This document shows, piece after piece, positions 1 to 19,947 of a stretch of 19,947 nucleotides of DNA. Each line of letters starts with the position of its first letter. Position 1 is the stretch's first letter. A program made the translations under genes and the position numbers. Origin of the DNA: Candidatus Eiseniibacteriota bacterium. Its GTDB lineage: Bacteria > ARS69. The stretch spans positions 1 through 19,947 of the forward strand of contig JBQTGV010000050.1 of NCBI GenBank assembly GCA_052390515.1. Direction: 5' to 3'. The notes under the pieces are model-generated. The model had not been told where the DNA came from. It saw only the letters and a list, made by a program, of their open reading frames with translations, and did not search any database.

Positions 1-1184
1 CAAGGCCCCGACCCCAGCGCGATGAGCTCGCGGAAGAGCGGCTCGGCCGCGGCCACGTCGCGCCGTCCGTCGCGCAGGATCCGCCCGGTCTCCAGCCGCG
101 CGGCGAGCCCGTAGTCGGTCTCGGCGAACTCGGCCGTGAGGCGACCGTACGCCGCGAGCGCCGCGTCCCAGTTCGAGAGCGCCGCCCAGCTCCGCGCGAT
201 CTCGGTGAGCGCGGCCGGAACGAGACGCGCGTCCCCGGGCCGCTCCACCAGGTGCTCGAACACGCGGATCGCCGCGGTGTGCTTGCCGTCGGTCTGGCAG
301 CGCTTGCCGAACGACAACAGCGAACCGAACTGCCCGGGGACCTCGTCGGCGATGCGGAAGTAGTGCTCTCCGGCGCGCTCGTGATCGCCGGCCTCGAGGT
401 ACAGGTCGCCGAGGAGCTTGCGGAACACCAGCGCGGACGGGTTCGCGGCCGAGCCCGGCTCCTCCTCGGCCTCCGGCCCGCTCGGACCGCCTGCGGCGAG
501 CCACTGCTCGACGCGCCCGATCACGGCTCCGAGACCATCCTCGGTCTCCCCCATGCGCAGGAGCCGGCCTTCCACGTAGGACAGGGCGGTCGGGCGCTCC
601 TTCAGGAAGCGCAGGTACTCCGCCGTCGCCTGGGTGAAGTCGAACTGCAGCTCGTGCAGCTCGGCCTTCTGTTGCGTGAAGCGTCCCGGATGGACGGCCT
701 CCGCCTCCACGTACACGGCCAGCGCCTCGTCGAGCATGCGGCTACGCTTCATCAGCTCGGTGACCATCGAGTAGGCGCCCGCGGATCCGCCCTGCACCTC
801 CAGGATCCGCCGCCACCAGCGCACCGCTTCCTCGCGCTCGCCGCGCTGTGCCGCGACCGTCCCCAGCTCGGAGAGCAGCGCGGGATCGTCCGGGTCGCGC
901 GCGAGCTCCCGCTCCAGGATGACGGCGAGCTCGTCGTGCAGCTTCAGCTCCAGGAGACACTCCTTCAGGCCGCGCGTGATGCGAGGGTCGCCGGGGTCCG
1001 CCTCGTAGATCTCCCGGTAGAGCGCCAGCGCTTCCTCGAAGCGCCGCTCCCGTTGCAGCTCGGTCGCCAGGTGCAGGCGGGACCGCACCACGGACTGGGG
1101 CGAGGCCGGAGGCTGAGCGCTCACGCCCTCCGGCGCGGCCCACGCGGAGAAGAGCACGACGAGACCGAGCAGAACGCGGCTCAA
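1..1184 (-). CDS. Exported tetratricopeptide-repeat (TPR) protein; C-terminus runs off the left edge
   Basis: Absent from the ORF track because it has no stop in the window; translated by hand. TTG at 1184-1182 overlaps the TGA of the upstream gene (TTGA), with GAGG upstream. Reads MSRVLLGLVVLFSAWAAPEGVSAQ (signal-peptide-like), then TPR-like helices such as RFEEALALYREIYEADPGD, LLSELGTVAAQRGEREEAVRWWRRIL and LLGDLYLEAGDHERAGEHY. The frame is open to the window edge. Confidence 0.85.
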   Translation of the reverse strand, partial: MSRVLLGLVVLFSAWAAPEGVSAQPPASPQSVVRSRLHLATELQRERRFEEALALYREIYEADPGDPRITRGLKECLLELKLHDELAVILERELARDPDDPALLSELGTVAAQRGEREEAVRWWRRILEVQGGSAGAYSMVTELMKRSRMLDEALAVYVEAEAVHPGRFTQQKAELHELQFDFTQATAEYLRFLKERPTALSYVEGRLLRMGETEDGLGAVIGRVEQWLAAGGPSGPEAEEEPGSAANPSALVFRKLLGDLYLEAGDHERAGEHYFRIADEVPGQFGSLLSFGKRCQTDGKHTAAIRVFEHLVERPGDARLVPAALTEIARSWAALSNWDAALAAYGRLTAEFAETDYGLAARLETGRILRDGRRDVAAAEPLFRELIALGSGP

Positions 1185-3862
1185 CTCGGCGCCTCGAGAC
1201 CCAGCTCGCGCGCCTTGGCCTCCAGATCCTTGGTCCATGGCTCGCCCTTCGCCCGGCCGAGGCTCCGCGCGAGATAGGTCTTCGCCTCGTTCTGCCGGCC
1301 CAGCGTCATGAGCACCACTCCGATGTGATAGTCGTTCTCGGCCAGCATGGAGACGTCGTCCAGCGGCAGCTCGCGCTCCGACTCCTGCAGCAGTCCGAGC
1401 GCGCCCTGTGCGTCTCCCCGGCGGAACCGGACCCAGCCGAGCGTGTCCTTCCAGTATGCGGCGAGCCCGGGATCCAGCTCGAGCGCCTCACGGGCGAGCG
1501 TCTCCGCGGTCGAAAGGCTGTCCCCGGAGATGGCGAAGACGTAAGCCAGCGCGTTCCTCCCCGCGGCGCTCTCCGGATCGAGCGCGAGCACCCGCCGGAA
1601 GGCCTCCGCCGACTCCTCCACCCGACCCAGGCGAAGCAGGCCGTAACCGAGACCGTACGCAGCCTCCAGGCTCTCCGTCGAGCCCTGGTAGACCTCGCGG
1701 TACAGCTCCGCCGCGCGCTGCGCGTCGCCACGCTCCAGGTACCTTTCGGCGAGTTGCAGGGTTCCCTGGACCGTCGCCGGCTCGACCGCCCGCCGGGCCT
1801 CGAGAAGCCCCGCTTCGCCCCCGATCTCGATTCCGCGTCTCACCGCATCGCGGAGCTGGACCGCCGGACCGAAGTCCCCCTCGAGCTCGAGGGCCTTCCC
1901 GGCGGACTGCTCCGCCTCCTCCAGCCGCCCGGCCAGCACGAGTTCGATCCCGCGGTTCAGCCACACTTCGGCGTACTTCGTGCCCTGCTCGACGATGCGG
2001 TCGAACCACTCGATCGACTCCTCCACGCGATCGGTGCGCGCGCACAGGATGGCCATGTTGTACAGCGCGTCCTCGTCGTCCGGCTCCAGCGCGAGGGACT
2101 CGAGGAAGCGCGCCTCCGCGGTCGCGGTGTCGCCGAGGAGCAGGTGCTCGAGTCCGAGGTTGCGCAGCAGCGCGGGGATCTCCCGCCCGACCTCCGCCGC
2201 GGCGCGCAGCCTGGCATCGGCCTCCTGCGGGCGCCCCATGCGGGAGAGCCAGCGGCCCTCGCGGAAGAGCACCGCGCCGGCCAGGTGGGACTCCAGATAG
2301 TCCTGCGGATCGATCGGCGGCATCTCCAGCAGCGAGTGCCGCACCGGAGCCGGCGCCTCGCCGGGGCGCAGCAGCTGCGCGACGAGGCCCGCGGGCATCA
2401 TGCGGCATCCGCCGAACATCTCGAGTCCGAACTCCTCGGTGGAAAAGACCGGCAGGTCCTGCCGGGAGAGCGCCAGCTCCACCTCGCGCGCGGGCGCCTT
2501 CGCTTCGCGCTCCACCCTCGACATCGCCGGGAAGTCCTCCCCGTACGCCTCGAGGAAGAGGTTCAGCGTCCGGTCGGCCAGCGTCACGTCGGGGCGAAGA
2601 CCCGCGACGCGCTGGAAGTAGGCGAGCAGGAAGACCGCGTTGTCTCCCCCCGCGTAGAGCCGGGCGTGCGACGGGAGCTCCGCGAGAATGCTCTCCGCGT
2701 ACAGCCGTCCGAGCGTGGAGCGGCTCTTGTCGCAGGCGGCGGCGTTCCGCTGCATGAGCACGGCGGGCGGCAGGACGGCGAGCAGCGCGGTGGCGAGCAC
2801 CGCGACGCGCGGCTCTCCGGCGAGCTTCCCGCGGACCAAGCGGTCGAGCGCGGCGATGCCGACGCCCGCCGCCAGGAACGCCGAGGCCACCGCCGGCCCG
2901 AAGTACACCGCGGCCACCGACCGATCCAGGAAGGTGTCCTCGAAGCGCACGGCCGCGGCCACCAAGGGACCAGTGGCGACGAACAGCAGGAGCAGGAGAG
3001 CGGCCGTCCAGCGGTCAGCCCGCAGTGCACGCGCCGCGCCGACCAGGGCGAAGGCGAGCACGAGCCCGGTCGCGCTTGCGGCCAGCAAGCCCGCGAAGAC
3101 GGAGAGCCGCAGCGCGAACGTGGTGTGCGCGGCGGCCTCGCCGAGCCCGCCGTACTGCGCGCGCGTCACGTGGTCCCAGAGATCGGAGGCGGAGCGGATG
3201 CCGCCCCACACCATCTCCGGACCGGACGCCCAGCGCACCGGGAGGTAGAGGTACGCGCTCAGCCCGAGCACGAACAGGGCGAAGGCTCCGAGCAGCCGGC
3301 GCACGGCGCCGTCCGGATGCGTGCGCGCGAGATCGATGGCGATGCACAGGACTGCCGGTCCGGCGGCGAGCACGAGCGGGTGATTCGCCGCGCCGAGCCC
3401 GAGGAGGTAGGCCGAGAGCGCGATGAGGCCGGGCCGCTGCCGCGCGGCGACTCCCGCGGCGACCACGCCCGCGAACATCAGCAGGTTCAGCGAGTACACC
3501 TCGGTGATCGTCGCCTGGGACCACACCCCGCGCGAGAGCGCGAAGGCAAGCCCGATGCCGGCGGAGACGAGCGGCCGGCCGGTCAGCGCCGCGAGGATCC
3601 AGGTGAGCAGCGCAGCGGCACCCGCGGCGAAGAGCGCGGAGCTGGCGTTGAGCGCCTCGATCGGGGAGGCCGAGGACACGAGGACGGCCACGCGGCCGCA
3701 GATCGTCCACAGCGGATAGCCGGGCTGATGCGCGATGCCGAGCGACGATGCCGCCCAGGCGAGCTCGCCCGAGTCCCCGGCATACACCGTGGGGCACAGC
3801 GTTCTCAGATAGACGGCGAAGGCACACAGCCCCACGGCGAGCGTGGCGGCGGCGTTTCTCAT
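1181..3862 (-). CDS. DUF2723/TMEM260-like GT-C glycosyltransferase (putative protein O-glycosyltransferase) with C-terminal TPR array, 893 aa
   Basis: N-terminal YLRTLCPTVYAGDSGELAWAASSLGIAHQPGYPLW matches the DUF2723/TMEM260 GDSGE...G(I/V)AHPPGYP signature. Also TEVYSLN, GLGAANH and YLYLPVR...WG. Many hydrophobic helices in the first ~370 aa and multiple TPRs in the last ~370 aa (e.g. ALYNMAILCAR, AAYGLGYGLLRLGRVEESAEAFRRVLALDP). Confidence 0.88.
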   Translation of the reverse strand: MRNAAATLAVGLCAFAVYLRTLCPTVYAGDSGELAWAASSLGIAHQPGYPLWTICGRVAVLVSSASPIEALNASSALFAAGAAALLTWILAALTGRPLVSAGIGLAFALSRGVWSQATITEVYSLNLLMFAGVVAAGVAARQRPGLIALSAYLLGLGAANHPLVLAAGPAVLCIAIDLARTHPDGAVRRLLGAFALFVLGLSAYLYLPVRWASGPEMVWGGIRSASDLWDHVTRAQYGGLGEAAAHTTFALRLSVFAGLLAASATGLVLAFALVGAARALRADRWTAALLLLLFVATGPLVAAAVRFEDTFLDRSVAAVYFGPAVASAFLAAGVGIAALDRLVRGKLAGEPRVAVLATALLAVLPPAVLMQRNAAACDKSRSTLGRLYAESILAELPSHARLYAGGDNAVFLLAYFQRVAGLRPDVTLADRTLNLFLEAYGEDFPAMSRVEREAKAPAREVELALSRQDLPVFSTEEFGLEMFGGCRMMPAGLVAQLLRPGEAPAPVRHSLLEMPPIDPQDYLESHLAGAVLFREGRWLSRMGRPQEADARLRAAAEVGREIPALLRNLGLEHLLLGDTATAEARFLESLALEPDDEDALYNMAILCARTDRVEESIEWFDRIVEQGTKYAEVWLNRGIELVLAGRLEEAEQSAGKALELEGDFGPAVQLRDAVRRGIEIGGEAGLLEARRAVEPATVQGTLQLAERYLERGDAQRAAELYREVYQGSTESLEAAYGLGYGLLRLGRVEESAEAFRRVLALDPESAAGRNALAYVFAISGDSLSTAETLAREALELDPGLAAYWKDTLGWVRFRRGDAQGALGLLQESERELPLDDVSMLAENDYHIGVVLMTLGRQNEAKTYLARSLGRAKGEPWTKDLEAKARELGLEAPS

Positions 3863-3875
3863 GGCGGACCCGGGC

Positions 3876-6800
3876 TCAGGGCAGATCCGGAACCGGAGCC
3901 TCGTCGGAGAGCGACCGGAAGTACCGGCGGATCAGTTCCTCGTACTTCGGAGGATAGCGGCGCTCCAGCGCCTTGAGAAGGTCCTCGCGGAGGTCGCGGT
4001 CGGGGTCGTCCAGCCCCTCGGGCAGCGCTCCGGGAGAGTCGAGGTCGGCGATCTCCTCCCCGGTGGTGGAACGCCGCTCGCGCCCGAAGTCCCGCTCGCG
4101 GATGGACCGCTGCGAGTCCAGCAGCCGCGTCAGCGCCCAGTCCTGCTCGCGGAGCGTCTCCTCGTCGAGGCGCCCCTCGCGCAGCCGCTTGGCCACCTCG
4201 TCGAGCTTCTCGGTCACCTGATCGAGGCGGCCGAGCAGGTCCTTGCCGGATCCGGCCTCGTCGAGCAGGCGCTGCAGTTCGTCCTTGAGGCGCTGCTGCT
4301 CCGCGGCGAGCGAGCGCATGCGGCCGTCGAGCCGCCGGTCCTGCCCGGAGCCGTTCTTCAACATCTCCTTCAACGCCTCGTTCAGCTTCTGCTGGTCGCC
4401 GGTCATCTCCTGCAGCTGCTGCATGAACCCCGACATGGGCATACCCGAGGCGCAGCTGCTCATGCTGCTCGCCGTCTCCAGCAGCGCGATGATCACCGCG
4501 TTCAGATCCTCGACCGCTTGGTCTCCGTCGTCCCGCGCCACCTGCACCGCGCCGTTCTCCAGGCCGTGCGCCGCTTCTTTCATGGCACGGATTCCGCCCT
4601 TCAGGCGCTCGCCGACCGCGGAACCCATCAGCGGCGTGTCCTTCGCCACCTCTTCCAGCATCTCCTCCACCCGCTCGGTCCCCTGGATGAGCAGGTGCTG
4701 CTCGTCGGCGAACGTGCGCGTCGCGGAGTTCGTGTTGCGCGGCATCTCCTCGAGATTCTTCGCCAGGCGCTCCTCGTCGCCGGAGACGGAAAGGAGGTCG
4801 CGGACGGCACGGTTGATCGCCGCCTGGTTGATCTGCGCCATGCGCATGGCCATCTGCTGCTGGCCGGAGGAGAGCTGCGTGAGCATGCGCTCCAGCTTGG
4901 TGAGCGCGTCCTCGCCCTTCTCCTGCGCCTCGGGCGAGTTTCCCTGCGACATCTCCTTCGCCGCGTCATCCATCGTCTCGGGAATCTCGCTCGACTCCAT
5001 CTTCTCGGAGAGCCCCTGCATCATCTCCTGGTCGTTGGAGTCCCGGAGCTCCTGCGTCATCTCCGCGATCTCCCGAAGCTTCTTCTCGAACGCGCGGGTC
5101 TCCTCGGCCAGCGCCTTCTCCTGCTCCGCGAGATTCTCCATGGGGTCGCGCTTCTCGGAGGGACCGCGCTTCTCCGAGGGAGACTTCTGCTCGGAGGCCG
5201 ACTCCTCGGCGCCCTCCTCGGCACCTTCCTTCTCGGCGGTCTCCTGGTCAGCGGCTTCCTGCTCGCCGCTCTTCTCGCCGGCGCTCTCCTTCTCGGCGCC
5301 CTCGTCCTCCGACTCGGAGCCGTCCTTCTCGTCGGCCTCCTCGCCCGTCTCCTCGCCGCTCTCCTCCTCGCCGGTCCGGTTCTCGTCGGCGTCCTTCCGC
5401 TCGTCGTCGGACGCGTCTTCCCGGGCCAGCTCCTCGTTCACTCGCTCCTGCTTTGCCGCGAGCTCCTCGAGCTGCCGCACCGCCGCCTTGAAGTTCTCCT
5501 CCAGGCGGAACTGCTTCAGGTTCTCGAGGATGCGGTCGAGCTGCTCGCGAAGCTCCTCCTGGGACATCTGGAACTCGGCGAGGTCCTCCTGCATGCGGCG
5601 CGGGTTGGCCTGCTCGAGCGCCTCGCGGAGCTTCTCGAGGGCCTCCTTCATCTCATCCGTCGCCACCTCGTCGAGCAGCTTGCGGATCTGCTCCATCTTC
5701 TGCACGGCCTCGAGCGTGGCGAACTCGGACTCGGCCAGCTCGCCGAGGTTGGACTCGATCTCCTCCTGCACTCGCTCGAGCTCCTCGGCCAGCTGCTCCT
5801 GCGCGGCGAGAGCGCGCTCCACTTCCTTGCGGTTCTCCCAGGAGGACTCGCCCTGCTTGAGGATCTCGCGGGAGATCTCCTCGACCTGTTTCTCCACGCG
5901 CTCGGCCTGCTCGGCGACTTCCTTCAGCTCCTCGAGCGAGGTCTCCTGCTCCTCGTCGATCTCCGCGTAGATCTCGCCCAGCGTCGGGAAGCGCAGGACG
6001 TAGTCCCGCGTGCGCGCCGTGGAAGGTCCGTCGACCGCGTTCGTGTCGGTTACCTCGAGCCGGTACACGACCGTGTCGCCGGGCAGGAGGTCGAGGGAGG
6101 CGAGACTCCACTCGAAGCGCTCGCTCACGTCGGTGACCCGGGACGGCGGGGTGAAGATGCGCAGCCGCTGCGTCTCGCCGGGCCGGCGGCTCGCTTCGAA
6201 GACGAGCTGGACCGGTCCCAGTCCGAAGTCGTCGACCGCGGAGAAGCGCAGGCCCACGCGCAGGCTCTCGTCCAGATCGCTGTCCTCGCCCGGCTCGATC
6301 AGGCGAATGAACGGCGCCTCGTCGGCGAGCGCGCGGATCCCGTAGGTGAGCGGATTCAGGTTCACGAGGCCGAGCGTGTCCTCGACGTGCAGCCGGTAAG
6401 CGTCCTGCGCGAGGATCGGCACCTCGGCGCGGAGCGGCCCGTCGTCCACCCGTGCGAGCTCCAAACGCGTGCCGCTGTCCAGCGCGAGCCACGCGGCGCG
6501 CACCTCGTTCGTGCAGCGCACCGAGAGCTCCGCGACGGTCCCTTTGACTGCCGCGAGGTCGCCGGCGCCGTCGCGCACGGAGCGGACCGGAAGACCGGTG
6601 TACTCCGGATAGCGGTAGCGGACTTCTTCGATCATCAGGCTCGGATGCGGGACGGCTTCCACCGAATGCTCGGCCGAACGCCGGCCGGCGTGCGCGAAGC
6701 GGTAGCGGAACGACTCGCGAACGTCGGAGAACCGGTGGCGGAAGCGGGCTCCGTCCTCCCGTTCGCGCTCGCCCTCGAGCTTCACTTCGGTCCACGGCGC

Positions 6801-7520
6801 CTGCTCGTTCGTGCGCCATTCGAGCACGGCTTCGGCCTCGCCGCCCGCGAGCCGGGCGTGCTCGACGACGGCGGCGAGCGTGACGTTCGTGCCGCGGGGG
6901 ATGGACACGTCGCCGGGGACGACGATGAAGGTGGCGGCCGGGCCCGGTCCGAGCTCGGCGAACGAACCGGCGAGCCGCAGCACGGAGTGCCCGGCGCGCT
7001 GCGGCCCGAGCGCGAGCGCCGCCAGCAGCGCCGTGGCGGTGCCGGCGGCGGCGATGGCAGCTCCTCGACGGAGTCGTGCGTTGTAGGGCAGCGTCGCCGG
7101 GCGAACCCGCTCGGCGATGGCGGCGGTGTCGTCCACGAACGCATCGACCAAGTCGGTGGAGTAGCCGGTGCGGCCGTCGTCGCGCACGTCGAGAACTTGC
7201 AGCGCCGGAACGAGCCGCTCTCGAAGATCCGCGGATTCCACCTCGGTCCGCCGCGCTGCCGCTTCGAGGTCCCGGAGCGCGGGCAGCAAGCGAAGGAGCG
7301 CGCGGCCGAACAGCACGGCGGGAAGCGCCACGGTCAGGGCGAAGCCTGCCGCGCGGACCGCGGCCGGCAGCGGAACGATGCGGTCGGCGATGACCAGGAC
7401 GGCGAGCCAAGCCACGGCGAGGCCGAACGCCCGGGCAGCGGCGGCCAGGAGCACACGCGTCACCTGGTGCGTCGAGAGACGCGCCGCCGCCGTCTTGAGC
7501 CTTCGCCCGCCCTGGGTCAT
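3876..7520 (-). CDS. DUF4175-like large membrane-anchored protein (N-terminal TM helices, beta-rich domains, long Glu/Gln-rich coiled coil), 1214 aa
   Basis: ATG preceded by GAGGAG. Three hydrophobic segments, L+ERLVxAL motif, YRYPEYTGLP...GDLAAVKGT, DEAPFIRLIEP, DDFGL, LLPGDTVVYRLEVTD, heptad-rich C-terminal half, LTRLLDSQRSIRER, and terminal YPPKYEELIRRYFRSL, all typical of this family. Confidence 0.8.
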   Translation of the reverse strand: MTQGGRRLKTAAARLSTHQVTRVLLAAAARAFGLAVAWLAVLVIADRIVPLPAAVRAAGFALTVALPAVLFGRALLRLLPALRDLEAAARRTEVESADLRERLVPALQVLDVRDDGRTGYSTDLVDAFVDDTAAIAERVRPATLPYNARLRRGAAIAAAGTATALLAALALGPQRAGHSVLRLAGSFAELGPGPAATFIVVPGDVSIPRGTNVTLAAVVEHARLAGGEAEAVLEWRTNEQAPWTEVKLEGEREREDGARFRHRFSDVRESFRYRFAHAGRRSAEHSVEAVPHPSLMIEEVRYRYPEYTGLPVRSVRDGAGDLAAVKGTVAELSVRCTNEVRAAWLALDSGTRLELARVDDGPLRAEVPILAQDAYRLHVEDTLGLVNLNPLTYGIRALADEAPFIRLIEPGEDSDLDESLRVGLRFSAVDDFGLGPVQLVFEASRRPGETQRLRIFTPPSRVTDVSERFEWSLASLDLLPGDTVVYRLEVTDTNAVDGPSTARTRDYVLRFPTLGEIYAEIDEEQETSLEELKEVAEQAERVEKQVEEISREILKQGESSWENRKEVERALAAQEQLAEELERVQEEIESNLGELAESEFATLEAVQKMEQIRKLLDEVATDEMKEALEKLREALEQANPRRMQEDLAEFQMSQEELREQLDRILENLKQFRLEENFKAAVRQLEELAAKQERVNEELAREDASDDERKDADENRTGEEESGEETGEEADEKDGSESEDEGAEKESAGEKSGEQEAADQETAEKEGAEEGAEESASEQKSPSEKRGPSEKRDPMENLAEQEKALAEETRAFEKKLREIAEMTQELRDSNDQEMMQGLSEKMESSEIPETMDDAAKEMSQGNSPEAQEKGEDALTKLERMLTQLSSGQQQMAMRMAQINQAAINRAVRDLLSVSGDEERLAKNLEEMPRNTNSATRTFADEQHLLIQGTERVEEMLEEVAKDTPLMGSAVGERLKGGIRAMKEAAHGLENGAVQVARDDGDQAVEDLNAVIIALLETASSMSSCASGMPMSGFMQQLQEMTGDQQKLNEALKEMLKNGSGQDRRLDGRMRSLAAEQQRLKDELQRLLDEAGSGKDLLGRLDQVTEKLDEVAKRLREGRLDEETLREQDWALTRLLDSQRSIRERDFGRERRSTTGEEIADLDSPGALPEGLDDPDRDLREDLLKALERRYPPKYEELIRRYFRSLSDEAPVPDLP

Positions 7521-7615
7521 CGCCTGCTCCTCTCGCCCTCTCGTCCCCTCGCCCGTCTTCGCCCTCTCGTAGCTTCGCCCCTGCTTCTGCCCCTTCTCCT
7601 GCTTCCGCCCCTTCT
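7521..7615. repeat. Pyrimidine-rich (plus strand) intergenic low-complexity tract with short direct repeats
   Basis: 18-bp tandem CCTGCTTC(T/C)GCCCCTTCT at 7580-7597 and 7598-7615; exact 12-mer TCGCCCTCTCGT at 7533-7544 and 7559-7570; only one A (7571) in 7521-7613. Confidence 0.75.
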
Positions 7616-8282
7616 AACGGGTCATCGCGTAGGCGACGACGTTGACGGCCATCCTAAGGGCCTGCTCGCGGACGTCCGGTGGGTCCTCGTGCACCTCGGG
7701 ATCCTCCAGGCCGTCCCCGATGTCCGTGTTGTAAGAGTAGAACACGACGAGGCGTCCCTCGTGAAAAATCCCGTATCCGCGCGGGGCGCCGCCGTGGTGC
7801 TCGTGGATCTTGGGGACACCCTTCGGGAAGTCGTATACGGCGTGATAAATGGGGTGATCGAAGGGGAGCTCCACGAGCTCCGCCTCCGGAAAGAGCTTGC
7901 GCAGCTCCGGCCTCAGCGACTCATCCATGCCGTAATTGTCATCGGCGAAGAGGAAGCCGCCGTGAATCAGGTACCAGCGAAGCCGCTCCGCCTCCTCCGA
8001 GGTGAAGCGGACGTTGCCGTGCCCGGTCATGTGGATGATGGGGCACGCGAACAGCTCGTCGTCCAGCGGAGCCACGCGCGCCTCCTCGATCACGACCTCC
8101 ATCCCGAGCCTGTCCTGAAGCGCCTTGGCCAGGTTCGGGAGGGAAGTGGGGTTGGCGTACCAGTCGCCGCCGCCGCCGTAATGGAGGCGACCCAGGCGGA
8201 CGGAGGCGGCGGGGCCGTCCGGCAGGGTGGCGGCCAGCAGGAACGCGGAAGCGAGAAGAGAGGTCACCACGACGGCAATCAC
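7614..8282 (-). CDS. DUF4159 family protein, probably exported, 222 aa
   Basis: Signal-like N-terminus; motifs LHYGGGGDWYANPTSLPNL, PIIHMTGHG, YLIHGGFLFADDNYG, LPFDHPIY, PKIHEH and NTDIGDGLED characteristic of DUF4159. The GTG start lacks a clear SD, so the exact start is uncertain. Confidence 0.88.
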   Translation of the reverse strand: MIAVVVTSLLASAFLLAATLPDGPAASVRLGRLHYGGGGDWYANPTSLPNLAKALQDRLGMEVVIEEARVAPLDDELFACPIIHMTGHGNVRFTSEEAERLRWYLIHGGFLFADDNYGMDESLRPELRKLFPEAELVELPFDHPIYHAVYDFPKGVPKIHEHHGGAPRGYGIFHEGRLVVFYSYNTDIGDGLEDPEVHEDPPDVREQALRMAVNVVAYAMTR

Positions 8283-8932: not shown

Positions 8933-9172
8933 TCAGCGAAGGGGGTCGCGCGGGTAGGCGCAGCGGTAGAGAACAGGGCCGAGCTTCAGGTGCGCGAGCC
9001 GCAGCGCGCACTCGCGCTCGGACGCTGCCGGATGGCGCCGGCGGATGCCGGCCAGCGCCAGCTCCTGAACAGTACGCGACAGACCGCCGACCAGCCGCGC
9101 CTTCTGCAGCGGCGTCATCCGCCGCCAGAGTTCGATCTGCAGGCGCGTCGCCTCGGGGGAAGTATCGTTCAT
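8933..9172 (-). CDS. Small helical protein, putative MenA1-like antitoxin, 79 aa
   Basis: ATG at 9172 with GGAG 5 nt upstream (9181-9178). [54 protein letters not shown]. Lies directly upstream of the NTase gene with a 14-bp gap. Confidence 0.75.
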
Positions 9173-9190
9173 GGCCACTCCGCTGCACGG

Positions 9191-9196
9191 ATTATA
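9191..9196 (-). promoter_or_regulatory. Consensus sigma70 -10 hexamer upstream of the antitoxin-like gene
   Basis: Plus-strand ATTATA equals TATAAT on minus, 18 nt upstream of the ATG at 9172, and conspicuous in very GC-rich DNA. It overlaps the TAA stop of the upstream gene. No convincing -35 (TCCCAC at 17-bp spacing). Confidence 0.55.
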
Positions 9197-10610
9197 ACCG
9201 CGGCGTTCCCCCGGTGGGATCGAGCTCCGCCACTCGCATCGCCGCCCACTCGCGCTCCGCTTCCAGCCCCTGCGGCGTCACCTTCGGGAACCCGCGGTAG
9301 ACGCTGTCCGACGAGAGCGCCCGCCGCTCGTCGGCGAGGTGCTCAGCGTACGCTCGAACACCGTCTGCGTACATTCGCGCGGCCGGTAGCTCGAGCCCGC
9401 CGAGCCGATACAGCGCCGCGTGGTCCCGGTCCCGGAACTCGGTGAAGAGGAAGCGCTGCGAATTGCGGAAGCGCTCCACCGGAAGCCCGCGCGGCGCCGC
9501 CCAGTCGAGCCGGTACAGGTTGTCGCGGACGGCGAAGGTCCTCCACGCCGGCAGCACCATTGCCGCGACGAGCAGCGCGCAGGCGATGTTCGCCCCGCGC
9601 GGCACCGACGCCGCCACGCCAGCGGCCAGCGGCAGGAAACACAGCAGCGACAGATCCGCCCACCAGAACTCTCCCTTCGGGCTCGACGCCAGCGAGAAGA
9701 AGAGGAACGTCCCGAAGCCGAGCACCTGAAGCACGCGCGCGCGTCCGGAGCGCAGCACCACGAGGCTGGCGAGCGCGCCGGCGAGCACGAGACATCCCGG
9801 CAGCGTCGTCATCGCCGGATACTCGGAGATGGATGGCTCGACCTTGTGGAAGTAGAGCGGCCTGACGTAGAGCGCCATCGGCCCGAAGCTCCATGTGCCG
9901 GGACGAAGCTTCTCGAGTTGATAGGCGAAGCCGAGCTCGGCCTCGTCCGCGGCCAGCGCTGCCGCCGGCGCGCGCAGATTCCAGATCACGTCGGGCATCA
10001 CGCACACGAGGGCGACCGCCGCGGCGATCCACGGCCCCCGCGTCCTGAGCAGCGCCGCCCGCCCGCCGAGAGCGAACACGGCCACGGCGAGCGGCGGCAC
10101 CCACAGCGCGAGCGACTGCTTGGTCGCGAGCCCGAGCCCGAGGGCGAGACCGAGCGCGGCGAAGCGCGACGACGTCGGCTTCCGCGCCACCTCGTCCGCC
10201 AGCAGCAGCGTGAACGCCGCGAACGCGAGGTAGTTCTTCTCCGTGGCGAGGTGCGAGGCGCCGAGGTGGTACTCGTTCAGCGTGAGGAGCCACGCCGCCG
10301 TCACTCCGGCTACCGGCCCGGCCAGCCGCCGACCCACCTGCCACACGGCCCACACCGTCGCCGCGCCGAACAGGAGGGAGAGCAGCCGGTAGCCGAGGAG
10401 GTTCTTGCCGCAGACCAGCGTCCCCAACGTGCTCCACCACACCTGACCCGGCGGGTGCTGGTGTCCGTGCAGCAGATCGCCGCGGTCGGCGATGCGCATC
10501 CACCACAGCTCGTCGTACACCGGTGCCGCGGACACGGCGAGGACCGCCCGCGACGCGAGCGTCAGGAGAACGGCCGCGACGACGAGAGCGCGTTCAGATG
10601 CGCTGGGCAG
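9192..10610 (-). CDS. ArnT/PMT-like (GT39/GT83-type) GT-C membrane glycosyltransferase
   Basis: Motifs PVYDELWW, HQHPPG, YRLLSLLFG, LGLGLATKQS and PDVIWN with many TM helices. The ORF track starts at GTG 10535, but the open frame continues upstream through a hydrophobic helix (ALVVAAVLLTLASRAVLAV) to CTG 10610, preceded by GGAGG at 6-nt spacing. Confidence 0.78.
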   Translation of the reverse strand: MPSASERALVVAAVLLTLASRAVLAVSAAPVYDELWWMRIADRGDLLHGHQHPPGQVWWSTLGTLVCGKNLLGYRLLSLLFGAATVWAVWQVGRRLAGPVAGVTAAWLLTLNEYHLGASHLATEKNYLAFAAFTLLLADEVARKPTSSRFAALGLALGLGLATKQSLALWVPPLAVAVFALGGRAALLRTRGPWIAAAVALVCVMPDVIWNLRAPAAALAADEAELGFAYQLEKLRPGTWSFGPMALYVRPLYFHKVEPSISEYPAMTTLPGCLVLAGALASLVVLRSGRARVLQVLGFGTFLFFSLASSPKGEFWWADLSLLCFLPLAAGVAASVPRGANIACALLVAAMVLPAWRTFAVRDNLYRLDWAAPRGLPVERFRNSQRFLFTEFRDRDHAALYRLGGLELPAARMYADGVRAYAEHLADERRALSSDSVYRGFPKVTPQGLEAEREWAAMRVAELDPTGGTPRL

Positions 10611-11991
10611 CCTTCGCCTCCCGGATGGCGTCGAGCGCCGCTTCGACTCCGAGGATCTTCTCGCGCACGCGGCCCTTCGCCGCGCCGCGCTCCACCTCGA
10701 TGGCGTCGAGCAACTTCCAGTCGTCGAAGGTGACGAAGCGAACGCCGCGCTGCTCCAGCAGGCTCATCAAGTCGGGGCGATCGCCCGCGCCGTCGAGCGA
10801 CGGCAAGTCCTCCAGCATCTTGTCGACCGTGGACTGGGAATCGCCCTTGTTCGTACCGATCAGGCCGCTCGGTCCGCGCTTCGCCCATCCGACCACGTAC
10901 TCGCCGGGGAGCGGCGCGCCGTCCGAGCTCGTCACGCGTCCCTCGTCGTTGGGGATGATTCCCCACGCGTCGTGGAACGGCACGCCCGGGATCGGAACAC
11001 CGCGGTAGCCGATGGCGCGGACGACCATACCGACGTCGAGCACCTCGGTCTCGCCCGTACCCTTCGCGCGCATTCCCCCGCGGCCGTCCGGCTCGAGCTT
11101 GTTCTTCTCGATGCGCACACCGGTCACGCGTCCTTCGTCGCCGAGCAGCTCGACCGGCGAGGCCAGGAAGCGCAGCCGCACCTTGCGCGGATTCGTTCCC
11201 TCGCCTTCCCCGGCCTTGGCCGCCAGGTACTCGACGTTCTTGAGCTCGGGCGAGCCCTTCTCGAGCGTCGGATCCCCGCGGTCCACCTGCGCGGGATCGA
11301 CGACGAGATCCACCCCCGCGAGCTTCCCGACCTCCTCGATCTCCTTGGGCGTGAACGCCGCCTGGGACGCCCCGCGACGGCCGATCAGGTACACGTCGCG
11401 GATGCGGCTCGTGTGGCGCAGAGCGTCGAGCGCGTAGTCGGCGATGTCCGTCGGCGCGAGCTCCTCGAGCTTGCGCAGCAGCACGCGCACCACGTCCATG
11501 GCGACGTTACCGACGCCGAACACCGCGACCTTCTCCACCGCGAGATCCACCGCGAGGTCGCGATGATCGGGATGCCCGTTGTACCAGCCGACCAGCGCGG
11601 TGGACGAGAGGCCGTTGGCCAGGTCCTCGCCGGGCACGCCGAGCCGCTTGTCCGTCTCCGCACCGACGGCGTAAATGATCTGGTCGTAGTGCCGGCGAAG
11701 GTCGTCCACGGTCACGTCCTTGCCCAGCTCGACGTGGCCGAAGAAACGGAACTCCGGGCGGGCCGCGGTCTTCTCGTAGGTCTTGATGACCGCCTTCATT
11801 TTCTGGTGGTCCGGCGCCACCCCGTAACGAACGAGCCCGTAAGGGCAGGGCAAGCGGTCGATGACGTCCACCCGGACGGCGACCTCGGGCCGCCGGAAGA
11901 GGGCCTCCGCGGCATAGAAGCCCGACGGCCCGGACCCGACGATGACGACGCGGAGCGGCCGCCCCGGGGTCCCGATCTCGTTTCCCTGCAT
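10594..11991 (-). CDS. fprA: Ferredoxin--NADP+ reductase, FprA/adrenodoxin-reductase family, 465 aa
   Basis: ATG at 11991 with GGGAGG upstream. FAD motif VVIVGSGPSGFYAA, PYGLVRYGVAPDH, GWYNGHPD, NADPH motif GVGNVAMDV, GRRG...FTPKE, AIGYRG and GWAKRGPSGLIGTNK. Confidence 0.92.
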   Translation of the reverse strand: MQGNEIGTPGRPLRVVIVGSGPSGFYAAEALFRRPEVAVRVDVIDRLPCPYGLVRYGVAPDHQKMKAVIKTYEKTAARPEFRFFGHVELGKDVTVDDLRRHYDQIIYAVGAETDKRLGVPGEDLANGLSSTALVGWYNGHPDHRDLAVDLAVEKVAVFGVGNVAMDVVRVLLRKLEELAPTDIADYALDALRHTSRIRDVYLIGRRGASQAAFTPKEIEEVGKLAGVDLVVDPAQVDRGDPTLEKGSPELKNVEYLAAKAGEGEGTNPRKVRLRFLASPVELLGDEGRVTGVRIEKNKLEPDGRGGMRAKGTGETEVLDVGMVVRAIGYRGVPIPGVPFHDAWGIIPNDEGRVTSSDGAPLPGEYVVGWAKRGPSGLIGTNKGDSQSTVDKMLEDLPSLDGAGDRPDLMSLLEQRGVRFVTFDDWKLLDAIEVERGAAKGRVREKILGVEAALDAIREAKAAQRI

Positions 11992-12008
11992 GACCTGCCG
12001 CCCTCCCG

Positions 12009-12045
12009 TCGAAATCCCGACGTTCGCGTCGTAGATTACGGCGAA
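12009..12045. promoter_or_regulatory. Putative divergent promoter region for nifJ and fprA
   Basis: Plus strand: TCGAAA (12009-12014), 17 bp, TAGATT (12032-12037). Minus strand: TAATCT (12038-12033). Both -10-like hexamers sit inside an imperfect palindrome TTCGC-GT-CGTA-GAT-TACG-GCGAA (12023-12045). Confidence 0.4.
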
Positions 12046-12096
12046 GCCGCTCCCGGGTCGAGGCCCGACGGGCCCCCCGGTCGAAGGGAGGACGCC

Positions 12097-15774
<3,678 letters not shown>

Positions 15775-15782
15775 GAGGCGGT

Positions 15783-16781
15783 ATGGACCTCACCACGCAC
15801 TATCTCGGGCTCGAACTTCGCCACCCGTTCATGCCGGGCGCTTCGCCCATGGCCGACGATCTCGGCATGGTGCGGCGGCTGGAGGACGCGGGCGCTTCCG
15901 CCATCGTGCTGCGTTCTCTCTTCGAGGAGCAGATCATCGGGGAGCAGCTCGCTTCGCATCACTCCCTGGACCACCATGGTGACTCCTTCGCCGAGGCGAT
16001 GACCTACGCGCCGGATCCGGAGGAGTTCTCGCTCGGGCCGGAGGAGTACCTGGAGCAGGTACGGCGCATCAAGGAGGCGGTGCGGGTTCCGGTGATCGCG
16101 TCGTTGAACGGGACGACCGTCGGCGGCTGGCTGGAGTACGCGCAGCTCATCGAGGACGCCGGGGCGGACGCGCTGGAGCTGAACGTGTATCAGGTGGCGA
16201 CGGATCCTGCGCGGACCGCGGCGGACATCGAGTCCGACGTCCTGGAGATGGTGCGTTCCGTCGTCGGCGAGGTGGAGATCCCCGTGGCGGTGAAGCTCTC
16301 GCCGTTCCACACCGCGCTGACGAACTTCGCGCGGCAGCTCGACCGGGCGGGCGCGCGCGGGCTCGTGCTCTTCAACCGCTTCTACCAGCCGGACATCGAT
16401 CCCGAGGAGCTGGAGGTGGTGCCCGCGCTGCAGCTCTCCGACTCGCGGGAGCTGCTGCTGCGGCTGCGTTGGCTGGCCATCCTGTCGAACCGCGTCGTGG
16501 CGTCCCTGGCGGTGACCGGCGGCGTGCACACCGGGATCGACGCGGTGAAGGCCGTCATGGCCGGCGCGCACGCGGTGCAGATCGTGTCGGCGCTGCTGAT
16601 GCACGGGCCGAAGCAGCTCACCAGGATCCGGGATGACGTCGGGCGGTGGCTGGAGGAGCGGGAGTACGCGTCGCTCGCGCAGGCGCAGGGCAGCATGGGA
16701 TTGCTGCGCTGCCCGGATCCCAAGGGCTTCGAGCGCGGGAACTACATGCGGATCCTGCAGAGCTGGCGACGGTTCGTGTGA
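15783..16781 (+). CDS. Dihydroorotate dehydrogenase-like FMN flavoprotein, 332 aa
   Basis: ATG at 15783 after GGAGG, 8 bp after the nifJ stop. MDLTTHYLGLELRHPF, LRSLFEEQI, PVIASLNG, GADALELNVY, IPVAVKLSP, LFNRFYQPDID and TGGVHTGIDAVKAVMAGAHAVQIVSAL. Confidence 0.92.
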   Translation: MDLTTHYLGLELRHPFMPGASPMADDLGMVRRLEDAGASAIVLRSLFEEQIIGEQLASHHSLDHHGDSFAEAMTYAPDPEEFSLGPEEYLEQVRRIKEAVRVPVIASLNGTTVGGWLEYAQLIEDAGADALELNVYQVATDPARTAADIESDVLEMVRSVVGEVEIPVAVKLSPFHTALTNFARQLDRAGARGLVLFNRFYQPDIDPEELEVVPALQLSDSRELLLRLRWLAILSNRVVASLAVTGGVHTGIDAVKAVMAGAHAVQIVSALLMHGPKQLTRIRDDVGRWLEEREYASLAQAQGSMGLLRCPDPKGFERGNYMRILQSWRRFV

Positions 16782-16978: not shown

Positions 16979-18787
16979 TCACTCGCCCAACGCCTCCCAC
17001 TGCCCCCTCGCCACCGGGTCCGCCGGGTTCCAAGCCAACGCACGCGCCAGCTCGTCCCGCGCGCGCTCGACATCGCCCAGCCGCATGGCCGTCACGCCGG
17101 CATACGTCGCCATCTGCGCCGCATAGCCCCGCGCAGCGTCCGCCCACGCGCCACCTTCTCCCGGCGGCGGGAGATCCGGCCACGGCGCCGGAGCACCGAG
17201 CGCCGCCGCCCCCTCCGGCGGCTCGAGCCGGAAGAGCAAGCCGTCCGGCACGCGCACCCACGCCGTCCCGATGCCGGCCTCCACCTCCTGCGTCACGTAA
17301 GCGCCGCCGCGCTGCATGCCCTTCGCCAGAATGCCGTCGATCAGCGTCTCGAACGCCGCCTGGATCTCCGCCGCCTCGTACGGCTCGCCGCGCTCGAAGC
17401 GCAGCACGAGCCGGTGCAGCTCGTCGGCCTCCTGCTCCAGTCCCTCGAGCAGATCCGCGTGATGTCGGCGGAGGCTCGGCACCTTCCACGATCTCCGGAA
17501 GTGCTCCTGATCCAGCACCGCGAGATCCGGCCGCACTCCCTCCACGTGCTGCAGGTAGAGCGCCGGCGACATCAGCACGTCCCAGTGCCGGTTGAGCACG
17601 ACGGCGTTGGGCGCGGGCGTCTCCAGGAACGAACGCGCCATCGCCTCGATGGTCGCATCCCGCGAGCGGTCGGCTGCGCGCCATCCTCCCACCAACGGCA
17701 CGACCGGCAGCAGCACGACCGCGGGCAGCACGCGCCGCGCCGCCGTCCATTTCGCCAGGGGACGCCACGCCGCAGCCGCCTCCGCCACCCACGCAGTCCC
17801 CGTCCCGATCCACACCGCCGCCACGAGGAACGCGGGCAGGAAGTACGTGGCGATGTCGTGGATCGTGTACCCGAGCGGGTACGCTGCCGACAGCGCGAAC
17901 ATCGCCAAAGTGCCGCCGGCCAGCCCCGGCACGCGCCGCGCGCTCCACAGACCCGCCGCGGCCAGCGCGAGCAGCGGCCACGAGAAGCGCGCCATTCCGG
18001 CGCCGAGCTCGCGGAGGTTCGCCGTCACGCCCTCGCCCGACGAGAACATCCACACGCGGTACTGCGCTCCGCTCACGTGCCGCATGAACGACTCGAACGT
18101 GTCCGGCGATCCCCAGTCGAGCAGCGGCTCCTGTGCGGAGCGCACCGGCAGCACGAGGTAGAACGACGCGCCGAGGACGGCGAGCAGTGCCGCGCCGGCG
18201 ACGACCGCCGGCCGCAACTCCCGGCGCCGCCGCCACGCGCCGAGCGCCACCCCCGGCAGGAGCAGCGCCGACGTCAGGTGATTCGAGAGACACAGCCCCG
18301 CGAAATACCCCGCGCCGAGGAAGGCCGGCTCCCGCACCGGCCCACGTCCCCACAGTCCCGCGCGCACCACTGCGTGCAGCAGCGCGGCGTCCAGGAACAT
18401 CTGCAGCGCGTGCACCTCGGTGACGGTCGCCACCGACCAGAGAGTCCCGTGGAAGGCGAAGGCCGCCGCCCCCGTCACCGCCCCGACCTGCCGCCACCGC
18501 CCCAGCCTCTCCGGCAGCACGTCGGCGATCACCCGGCAGACCAGGAACGCCGCGCCCGCCGCCAACACCGCCGACAGCACGTTCACCCACGTGATGATCC
18601 GCATCGGTGCGGCCAGCACCCACGTCCGCCCGAGCACCGCGAAGAGCGGATACCCCGACGGGTGCGCGATGCCGAGCGTCGCCGCGACCGTGGCCAGCTC
18701 CCCGCTATCGATCTCGGTGATTCCCGGCGCGAGCGTCCGCAAGTAGACGCACAGCGCCACCACCGCCACCGCGAGCGCCGCCCTCAC
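16979..18787 (-). CDS. Second DUF2723/TMEM260-like GT-C glycosyltransferase with a short C-terminal TPR, 602 aa
   Basis: YLRTLAPGITEIDSGELATVAATLGIAHPSGYPLF, TEVHAL, GLCLSNH, YLVLPVRSAQEPLLDWG and YLQHVEGVRPDL; ends with a TPR-like GVTAMRLGDVERARDELARALAWNP. Confidence 0.88.
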   Translation of the reverse strand: MRAALAVAVVALCVYLRTLAPGITEIDSGELATVAATLGIAHPSGYPLFAVLGRTWVLAAPMRIITWVNVLSAVLAAGAAFLVCRVIADVLPERLGRWRQVGAVTGAAAFAFHGTLWSVATVTEVHALQMFLDAALLHAVVRAGLWGRGPVREPAFLGAGYFAGLCLSNHLTSALLLPGVALGAWRRRRELRPAVVAGAALLAVLGASFYLVLPVRSAQEPLLDWGSPDTFESFMRHVSGAQYRVWMFSSGEGVTANLRELGAGMARFSWPLLALAAAGLWSARRVPGLAGGTLAMFALSAAYPLGYTIHDIATYFLPAFLVAAVWIGTGTAWVAEAAAAWRPLAKWTAARRVLPAVVLLPVVPLVGGWRAADRSRDATIEAMARSFLETPAPNAVVLNRHWDVLMSPALYLQHVEGVRPDLAVLDQEHFRRSWKVPSLRRHHADLLEGLEQEADELHRLVLRFERGEPYEAAEIQAAFETLIDGILAKGMQRGGAYVTQEVEAGIGTAWVRVPDGLLFRLEPPEGAAALGAPAPWPDLPPPGEGGAWADAARGYAAQMATYAGVTAMRLGDVERARDELARALAWNPADPVARGQWEALGE

Positions 18788-18851
18788 GCCTTCGCCCTCA
18801 CGCCCTCGCCCTCACGCCGTCACCCCTTCGCCCTCACCCTTCGCCTTCACG
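18781..18851. repeat. 14-bp tandem repeat CCCTCACGCC(T/C/G)TC(G/A) x3 plus degenerate copies
   Basis: Units at 18781-18794, 18795-18808 and 18809-18822; degenerate copies at 18831-18843 and 18844-18851. The array fills the whole kinase/DUF2723 spacer. Confidence 0.85.
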
Positions 18852-19947
18852 TCTCCGCCGGGAAGACGAGCGTCACCGTGGTGCCGTTGCCGGGCCGGCT
18901 CTCGATGTCGATGGTCCCGCCGTAGTCCTGCATGATGGCCTTGCAGATCGGCAGCCCGAGTCCCGCGCCGCCCGTCTTCGTGGAGAAGCTCGGCTCGAAG
19001 ATCCGCGCCAGGTTCTCCGCGGTGATGCCGGTCCCGGTGTCCCGGATCACCACGTGCGCGCTGCCGTTGTCCCCCCAAGCTTTCACGCTGAGATTGCCGC
19101 CGTCCGGCATCGCCTGGATGGAGTTCTCGATCAAGTTGATGAACAGCCGCATCACCTCGTCCTTGTCGACTCGCGTGAAGATGCGCCCTTCCGGCGCCTC
19201 CAGCGTGAAGTCCACGCTGCGGTCGTCCAGCGCGTAGAGCTTCCGCGCCTCGCCGAGCAGCCGGCCCAGATCCTCGCGGCGGATCTTCCGCCCGGGCATG
19301 CGCGCGTAATCCGAGAATTCCATGGCGATGCGGCGCAGTGCCTCGCAGCGGTCCACGATCGTCTCCGTGGACTCCTCCAGGATCTCGCCGAACTTGGGAT
19401 GCTTGTCCTTCCAGGCCTGCAGCACCTGCTGGGCGGAGAGCTTCATCGGCGTCAGCGGATTCTTGATCTCGTGCGCCACCTGTCGCGCCATCTCCGCCCA
19501 CGCCTTGATCTTCTTGGAGCGGATCAGCTCGGTGAGATCCTCGAACACGACGACCGCGCCCTGCGGCTTGCCGGCCCGGTCCACGAGCGGCGTCCCCACG
19601 AGGCGAAGCGTGTGCAGCTGCTCGTCGGCGGAGCCTTCCGCCGGCGCCACCTCGATCTCGTCCACCACCTCGGTGCGCTTCCCCTCGAGCAGCGGCCGCG
19701 CCGAGCCCAGCACGGCGGTGAGCGCGTCACCGCCCGCCGGATCCGCCGTCATCCGCCCGACCAGGTCCTCCGGCGCGCGCCCCACGATGCGCGCCGCCGC
19801 GTCGTTCACCGTGGCGATGCGACCGGAGGCGTCGAAGCTGATCACTCCGGAGCCGACGTTGCGGATGATCGCCTCGATGTACTCGCGGCGCTCGCGGTCC
19901 CGCGCCTCGGATTCCGCGAGCCGCCGCGACATCGAGTTGAACGAGCG
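18847..19947 (-). CDS. NtrY-like sensor histidine kinase (end of HAMP, PAS, HisKA, HATPase_c); N-terminus beyond the right edge
   Basis: HAMP end SFNSMSRRL; PAS (SGVISFDASGRIATVNDAAARI...VFEDLTE); H-box WAEMARQVAHEIKNPLTPMKLSAQ; N-box NLIENSIQAM; G1 DTGTGI; F IFEPSFSTK; G2 GAGLGL. Confidence 0.92.
   Translation of the reverse strand, partial: RSFNSMSRRLAESEARDRERREYIEAIIRNVGSGVISFDASGRIATVNDAAARIVGRAPEDLVGRMTADPAGGDALTAVLGSARPLLEGKRTEVVDEIEVAPAEGSADEQLHTLRLVGTPLVDRAGKPQGAVVVFEDLTELIRSKKIKAWAEMARQVAHEIKNPLTPMKLSAQQVLQAWKDKHPKFGEILEESTETIVDRCEALRRIAMEFSDYARMPGRKIRREDLGRLLGEARKLYALDDRSVDFTLEAPEGRIFTRVDKDEVMRLFINLIENSIQAMPDGGNLSVKAWGDNGSAHVVIRDTGTGITAENLARIFEPSFSTKTGGAGLGLPICKAIMQDYGGTIDIESRPGNGTTVTLVFPAET

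Follow-up and report, generated by a model that had tools for sequence, protein, structure and literature searches.

A TMEM260-type glycosyltransferase gene embedded in a conserved envelope gene module of Candidatus Eiseniibacteriota, with linkage that recurs in three phyla

What is a bacterial enzyme related to TMEM260, the protein O-mannosyltransferase of humans, doing among genes for exported proteins, and does it work with them? This question is raised by a 19,947-bp stretch of DNA from Candidatus Eiseniibacteriota (contig JBQTGV010000050.1 of assembly GCA_052390515.1), hereafter the window, which is a complete contig of a 4.27-Mb assembly with 70% GC. At one end, on the minus strand, lie genes for a DUF4159 protein, a DUF4175-like inner-membrane protein, a TMEM260-family (GT117) glycosyltransferase of the GT-C type with a tetratricopeptide repeat (TPR) tail, here called GT3, and an exported TPR protein. 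The pairing of a TMEM260-type gene with this gene set recurs in three phyla and involves two distinct TMEM260 clades, and because of this recurrence the enzyme probably works with the gene set. Genome comparison thus gives partial support to a linkage broader than the one first noted, in which a TMEM260-type enzyme is embedded in a conserved envelope module.

GT3 (positions 1181..3862, minus strand; 893 aa) is, as judged from its sequence, a true member of the TMEM260 family with intact functional residues. The PF11028 profile matches residues 30-174 with 77.2 bits (cut-off 24.2), and phmmer aligns residues 8-434 with residues 30-468 of the human TMEM260 chain 9rql_A (E 2e-26), from the membrane domain into the luminal domain. 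The intact GDSGE motif and TPR tail of the original prediction are borne out: the motif is present as A-G-D-S-G-E-L, with D30 as its Asp. Five of the six residues found important by mutagenesis of the human enzyme are kept in the alignment (D30=D52, H45=H67, R234=R264, Y237=Y267, D407=D441). In human TMEM260, D52, H67, R264, Y267 and D441 are needed for activity, and the R355A mutant has about 20% left (10.64898/2026.03.17.711096). D52 and H67 form the sugar-recognition motif, R264 and Y267 belong to the donor-loading loop, R355 lies in membrane helix 10, and D441, proposed as the catalytic base, is part of the Rossmann-like luminal domain (10.64898/2026.03.17.711096). The equivalent D407 of GT3 sits in G-G-D-N, and a G/D-D-N motif is kept in its orthologs and in the enzymes linked to the module in two other phyla. 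For human R355 the alignment, weak in this part, gives Val319, and an Arg five residues earlier, R314, is mostly conserved. This matched set of five is conserved across the 11 aligned sequences of the GT3 group (clade A) from the window's phylum, and equally in 5/5 of the enzymes that come after a DUF4175-like gene in modules of two other phyla. Hydropathy puts about 10 membrane segments in the first 371 residues and none beyond them, and matches to TPR families extend from residue 530 to 893 (a tail of about 360 aa). A GT-C fold, which has 11 membrane helices, is inferred from the homology to 9rql.

The gene set itself is laid out much as first described, namely as four co-directional genes for exported or membrane-anchored proteins; coordinates, spacings and hydrophobic segments all agree. 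The first gene of the module encodes the exported DUF4159 protein (7614..8282; 222 aa), the genome's only DUF4159 match, which PF13709 covers in full length (profile positions 1-202 of 202) at 229.3 bits, above the cut-off. It is followed after 93 bp by the gene for the DUF4175-like protein (3876..7520; 1214 aa), after a further 13 bp by GT3, and then, with a 4-bp TTGA overlap, by the TPR gene, of which the N-terminal 394 aa are present before it runs off the contig (1..1184, from a TTG start at 1184 to base 3; TPR families matched). The four minus-strand open reading frames are taken as real genes because their GC content at third codon positions (GC3) of 0.87-0.92, the DUF4159 gene having 0.87, is higher than the 0.74-0.78 of the long plus-strand frames in overlapping DNA. 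The DUF4159 and TPR proteins each have one N-terminal hydrophobic segment in the hydropathy scan, and the DUF4175-like protein has three membrane segments, two within residues 26-79 and one at 153-171. The 4-bp overlap requires the TTG start, from which the TPR protein begins with a signal-peptide-like N-terminus; an alternative ATG at 1238 would give a 58-bp overlap. A promoter and terminator scan returned nothing above shuffled sequences. The coding strand of the 93-bp spacer (7521-7613) is strongly purine-rich, and the equivalent gap in relatives is about 8-40 bp.

The adjacency of the DUF4159, DUF4175-like and TMEM260-like genes could have been a peculiarity of this contig, and its absence from relatives was the outcome named at the outset as fatal to the proposed linkage. 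Instead, it is kept throughout the window's GTDB phylum, which consists of 12 species genomes of one family. A DUF4175-like gene followed by a GT3 ortholog occurs in 11/11 of the other genomes (12/12 including the window), although in G002 the linkage is in pieces and accompanied by a second partial copy. The TPR gene comes next after the GT3 ortholog in all eight loci with downstream DNA. Upstream of DUF4159, on the same strand, an ortholog of a giant sensor histidine kinase is found in six of the seven loci with upstream DNA, directly in five of them and with a TMEM260-like paralog between in the sixth (L040). The window's second TMEM260-like gene lies between the kinase and DUF4159 genes, and so does its ortholog in G006.

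Beyond this phylum, we used a sample of 401 genomes, of which 174 contain DUF4159 and 189 contain PF11028. One hundred loci outside the phylum were chosen from the best-scoring DUF4159 matches, one per genome, and 77 of them were analysed with 10-kb flanks (about 1.4 Mb), the neighbouring genes being counted with profiles built in this analysis. A DUF4175-like gene directly follows DUF4159 in 43/77 loci; in these 43, the module TPR gene follows the pair in 30 and a gene for a protein resembling class I glutamine amidotransferases (GATase1-like) is present in 22. TMEM260-like genes are found in 5/43, plus one locus in which such a gene directly follows DUF4159. The core of the module is thus DUF4159, DUF4175-like, TPR and GATase1-like genes, and the transferase is an accessory that enters in some lineages, because most of the modules (38/43) have no adjacent one; the TPR gene is present in 25 of the modules without an adjacent transferase (25 of the 30 loci that have it). 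It had also been claimed that DUF4159 and DUF4175 usually occur with MoxR, DUF58 and vWA genes. This does not hold for the present type of module, since only 7/77 loci have MoxR no more than 10 kb from DUF4159 and the three MoxR-DUF58 pairs of this genome are elsewhere, on contigs C14 (near 22-24 kb), C86 and C17, with none in the window.

To place the module-linked enzymes, a maximum-likelihood tree was built from 45 TMEM260-like domains, with four rows excluded (one duplicate, two fragments and one near-copy). The GT3 orthologs group with the enzymes of family f197, from a second phylum, with support of 99/96 and together with one doubtfully placed long-branch sequence. In f197 the DUF4175-like gene lies upstream of the transferase in 9/9 genomes and the TPR gene downstream in 7/9; of the two exceptions, one locus ends at a contig end and the other has no TPR match in its 1.5-kb flank. 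The phylum has just one further family, represented by a single genome (G077) whose module lacks the enzyme. The three enzymes encoded after the TPR gene fall in a separate clade with support of 100/100, which includes a paralog from the window's own genome on contig C75. The three genomes concerned belong to one large phylum, which is probably Bacteroidota because five of its genomes have 22-49 sorting domains of the type IX secretion system (T9SS) each.

Within this T9SS-rich phylum, homologs of the second-clade enzyme occur in 149/151 genomes, and the module TPR gene is directly upstream of the enzyme in 27 of the 30 best loci. Twenty further loci, from eight families, were examined: the full order DUF4159, DUF4175-like, TPR, transferase is present in 10 (f280 5/5, f178 4/4, f278 1/2, the other f278 locus ending at a contig end) and absent from nine (f275, f276, f285 and f288); this tally is incomplete, with 15 more loci outside it. 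A second paralog in such families was looked at in five loci: the full order is seen in one and the TPR gene followed by the transferase in three, and the fifth shows neither. There are accordingly two gene orders, DUF4175-like, transferase, TPR in clade A and DUF4159, DUF4175-like, TPR, transferase in the second clade, and in both the TPR gene touches the transferase gene. The C75 paralog, the third TMEM260-like gene of the window's genome (L195, 15358-18678), encodes about 1100 aa with a TPR tail and is a member of the second clade, which in the T9SS-rich phylum is linked to the module. It follows genes that resemble a GDP-mannose 4,6-dehydratase and a glycosyltransferase, as read from their N-terminal sequences.

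How could this linkage be explained? We propose that GT3 works with the envelope module and most likely O-glycosylates Ser/Thr of exported polypeptides, an explanation that, taken as a whole, we regard as evenly balanced between right and wrong. GT3 would face the periplasm, use a polyprenyl-phosphate sugar and modify exported polypeptides in a still extended state. It would act with the exported DUF4159 protein, the membrane-anchored DUF4175-like protein with its three Ig-like domains, coiled coil and helical head, the exported TPR protein and the exported GATase1-like protein with its invariant Cys, and these could be either its clients or partners acting with it on shared exported clients. 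The distribution of the two families points in the same direction. Outside the window's phylum PF11028 occurs in 108/162 genomes with DUF4159 vs 69/227 without it; it is also found in 41/43 genomes with the DUF4159/DUF4175-like pair, including all 30 that also have the TPR gene.

Several observations weigh against this explanation. The co-occurrence counts ignore shared ancestry, and most modules lack an adjacent transferase. Long TPR-tailed TMEM260-like genes occur in genomes without a DUF4159 match (G052, G220 and G370), and the control genome of Bacteroides thetaiotaomicron has a PF11028 match and no DUF4159 match. Regarding an acceptor, none of the Ser/Thr columns in the Ig-like part of the DUF4175-like protein is specific to transferase-adjacent loci (6 sequences vs 34 without; the best column has 83% vs 26%), the Ser/Thr and acidic content of its linker does not differ by group, and the sequon of human TMEM260 is absent from the four module-locus proteins. 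Among all open frames of 100 aa or more in the genome, the single occurrence of this sequon is in an Arg/Gly-rich frame of doubtful coding status. We infer a protein as acceptor only by analogy with the human enzyme, and the choice of protein, the sugar and any physical complex are likewise conjectural. The proposed linkage of the TMEM260-like enzyme with its neighbours is partly supported, by adjacency that recurs in three phyla and by intact residues, and is qualified by the 38 modules that do without such an enzyme next to them.

The same scarcity of adjacent transferases would be expected if GT3 were an envelope glycosyltransferase of general or unrelated function, its gene sharing the operon through common regulation or chance order and its product having no direct substrate or physical relation to the module proteins. 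In favor of this reading, TMEM260-like genes are also multi-copy, with three in the window's genome and up to nine PF11028 matches per sampled genome, and other contexts exist, such as that of the C75 paralog beside putative GDP-mannose dehydratase and glycosyltransferase genes. Against this, the linkage arose or persisted in three phyla, in two enzyme clades and in two gene orders. The six TMEM260-like matches in the 77 DUF4159 stretches all lie inside the module and on its strand, with none in the 10-kb flanks outside it, and 30/30 of the sampled genomes with the three-gene module have the TMEM260 family. We consider it unlikely that the enzyme is a mere bystander, while granting that this account has a real chance of being correct.

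The original prediction went further and suggested roles for two neighbours, with the Ig-like domains of the DUF4175-like protein as a possible glycan acceptor and the downstream TPR protein as substrate adaptor. The DUF4175-like protein scores 25.3 bits with PF13779, just below the cut-off of 27.3, and an ortholog with 56% identity, in L035, reaches 39.5 bits across positions 193-394 of the profile. Nine orthologs align over their full length with a mean column identity of 65%, and a pattern scan of genome contigs with this alignment returned close relatives only, at 11 loci. The predicted architecture starts with two transmembrane segments, a cytoplasmic stretch and a third transmembrane segment. 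Three Ig-like domains come next, then a coiled coil and a linker that is acidic and of low complexity, and the C-terminal domain is helical and conserved. A structure model of residues 175-540, made with 40 diverse sequences, has a pLDDT of 92.8 and comprises three beta-sandwiches followed by a long helix. Foldseek matches it to Ig-domain arrays (best E 1.5e-9) with low TM-scores, which are expected because the piece is a flexible, three-domain one.

These Ig-like domains favor the acceptor role, as human TMEM260 glycosylates Ig-like IPT domains (PMC10214176; 10.64898/2026.03.17.711096), and the TPR gene adjoins the transferase gene in both orders, with the 4-bp overlap in the window. The beta-rich domains that had been predicted are therefore present in the model, and what speaks against them as the acceptor is the lack of a transferase-specific Ser/Thr position, of a linker signal and of the human sequon in any of the four proteins. 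An adaptor role is not needed to explain the TPR protein, because it is a core member of the module even in the 25 loci that have no adjacent transferase, and GT3 has a long TPR tail of its own. A complex prediction for GT3 residues 390-893 and TPR protein residues 24-394, run with our own alignments, scored 0.01 against a mark of 0.32 and counts neither way. Taken together, we regard the combined acceptor and adaptor roles as improbable.

It is also conceivable that GT3 has a non-protein acceptor. Lipids and glycans are substrates of other GT-C enzymes whose membrane cores are similar, and GT3 might likewise act on an envelope lipid or glycan (lipid A, lipoglycan, peptidoglycan or exopolysaccharide), as ArnT-type GT-C enzymes do. 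The window itself carries a PMT_2-type GT-C membrane glycosyltransferase gene two genes upstream of DUF4159 (9192-10535, minus strand; 447 aa, PF13231 78 bits), and bacterial members of the TMEM260 family have no assigned substrate in the literature searched. What makes a lipid or glycan acceptor quite improbable in our view is that GT3 keeps two features which serve peptides in the human enzyme. One is the luminal Asp that activates the peptide hydroxyl and the other is a long TPR tail, the TPR domain of human TMEM260 being the part that binds the extended acceptor peptide (10.64898/2026.03.17.711096).

The fourth core member, the GATase1-like protein, is encoded after the TPR gene on another contig of the window's genome (C157 of G000, locus L156, 754-1944, plus strand), has about 415 aa and gives no Pfam match. 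It is 59% identical between G004, of the window's phylum, and a distant family, and over 23 sequences from across phyla its mean column identity is 69%, with an invariant Cys in F-x-M-C, several invariant His and a run H-L-H-H-E-D. It ranks among the most conserved proteins in this analysis. Its structure model (pLDDT 90.6, pTM 0.91) resembles the class I glutamine-amidotransferase-like STM3548, PuuD and SpuA as well as ThuA-like proteins, the best match having E 3.8e-6 and a TM-score of 0.52 on the target. The automatic name given to look-alikes in the protein atlas, 'asparagine synthetase B', is doubtful because of the export signal and fold of the protein. Apparent TPR/GATase1-like fusions in three loci were rejected as artefacts, being stop-to-stop frames that overlap the real TPR gene in another frame, as was a downstream 'conserved' cluster of 194 aa, a spurious-looking frame with no match to the cupredoxin-like gene of relatives.

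The genes for the Sec components SecD and SecF lie just upstream of the module in 11/77 loci, all of them among the 43 loci with the DUF4159/DUF4175-like pair, and likewise in the window's genome. It is tempting to extend the proposal that GT3 glycosylates exported polypeptides into a Sec-proximal periplasmic machine, in which module and TMEM260-type transferase would glycosylate and mature exported proteins as they emerge unfolded, as a counterpart of glycosylation at the translocon of the endoplasmic reticulum (ER), and in which the second-clade enzyme of the T9SS-rich phylum would be the one that initiates the general protein O-glycan of Bacteroidota. We offer this as speculation that is very improbable as it stands.

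The remaining parts of the locus could be ordered from the contig ends. The window ends with the C-terminal 366 aa of the sensor histidine kinase (18847..19947, minus strand; PAS, HisKA and HATPase_c matches; about 1580 aa in relatives), whose N-terminal part is at the end of contig C14, after secD-secF. The remainder of the TPR gene is on contig C157 at 8-679, where it matches residues 381-604 of the G004 ortholog, so that the complete protein would have about 600 aa. As these gene fragments match up, they imply that the end of C14 (secD, secF, kinase head) comes first, followed by the window (C50, read on its minus strand) and then by C157 (TPR tail, GATase1-like gene).

Between the kinase and DUF4159 genes the window carries an insertion, most of which relatives lack. 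It comprises the second TMEM260-like gene (16979-18787, minus strand; 602 aa, PF11028 92.9 bits), which has no TPR tail and encodes Gly at the position of the donor-loop Arg; a pyruvate:ferredoxin oxidoreductase gene set; the PMT_2-type GT-C gene, which found no match in related loci; and two small genes. The pyruvate:ferredoxin oxidoreductase gene and an oppositely oriented pyridine-nucleotide oxidoreductase gene lie within 10594-16781, as does a dihydroorotate-dehydrogenase-like gene (15783-16781, plus strand). The small genes, both on the minus strand and without a Pfam match, are a frame of 81 aa (8933-9178) and one of about 190 aa with an uncertain start (8900 to 8334 as translated); by eye, the latter resembles a nucleotidyltransferase-type protein. 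The contigs of three related assemblies (L033, L034 and L036) all start just upstream of DUF4159, which suggests a repeat or variable insertion at the site where the window carries its own.

How does this locus compare with systems that are already known? The closest is human TMEM260 (GT117; PDB 9RQL/9RQM/9RQN), the ER protein O-mannosyltransferase for IPT domains, with which GT3 shares PF11028, an alignable membrane domain and start of the luminal domain, the kept residues and a C-terminal TPR domain that would face the non-cytoplasmic side. In contrast to the human enzyme, the TPR tail of GT3 has about 360 aa rather than about 140, R355 falls opposite Val319 in the alignment, with an Arg five residues earlier, the donor must be a bacterial polyprenyl-phosphate sugar and not dolichyl-phosphate mannose, no IPT-type sequon is present in the neighbouring proteins, and the gene is embedded in an operon-like module. 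The 2023 paper that assigned the family to GT117 mentions bacterial members just as 'distant homologs in bacteria' (PMC10214176). Our searches on DUF2723, GT117 and TMEM260 found no paper on the function of a bacterial member, those on DUF4159 and DUF4175 found nothing on this module, and no report linking the two turned up in the literature searched. The linkage ties a widespread, unexplained envelope module to a defined chemistry, and it names four conserved exported proteins as first candidates for clients or partners of the enzyme.

A second comparison is with the cmdA-D operon (RL3499-RL3502) of Rhizobium leguminosarum, mutants of which are impaired in envelope and cell shape (PMC5700661, citing Vanderlinde et al. 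2011), and with Bat-type MoxR/DUF58/vWA loci, whose MoxR and DUF58 genes flank the module in 7/77 sampled loci. The module of the window differs from these in having no adjacent MoxR, DUF58 or vWA gene, in a DUF4159 protein that stands alone and is not fused to a BatA-type anchor, and in the addition of the TPR protein, the GATase1-like protein and, in some lineages, the TMEM260-type transferase.

The third comparison is with the general protein O-glycosylation of Bacteroidota, for which a 2025 review describes the core O-glycan transferase as undiscovered and suggests homologs of eukaryotic O-mannosylation as a place to look (PMC12871550). A TMEM260 clade is near-universal (149/151) in the T9SS-rich phylum and stands next to the same module TPR gene, although the window's organism belongs to another phylum and its module-linked enzyme to another TMEM260 clade. 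Because the same arrangement is present in the T9SS-rich phylum, probably including cultivable species, the idea that a TMEM260-type enzyme works with this envelope module can be tested there.

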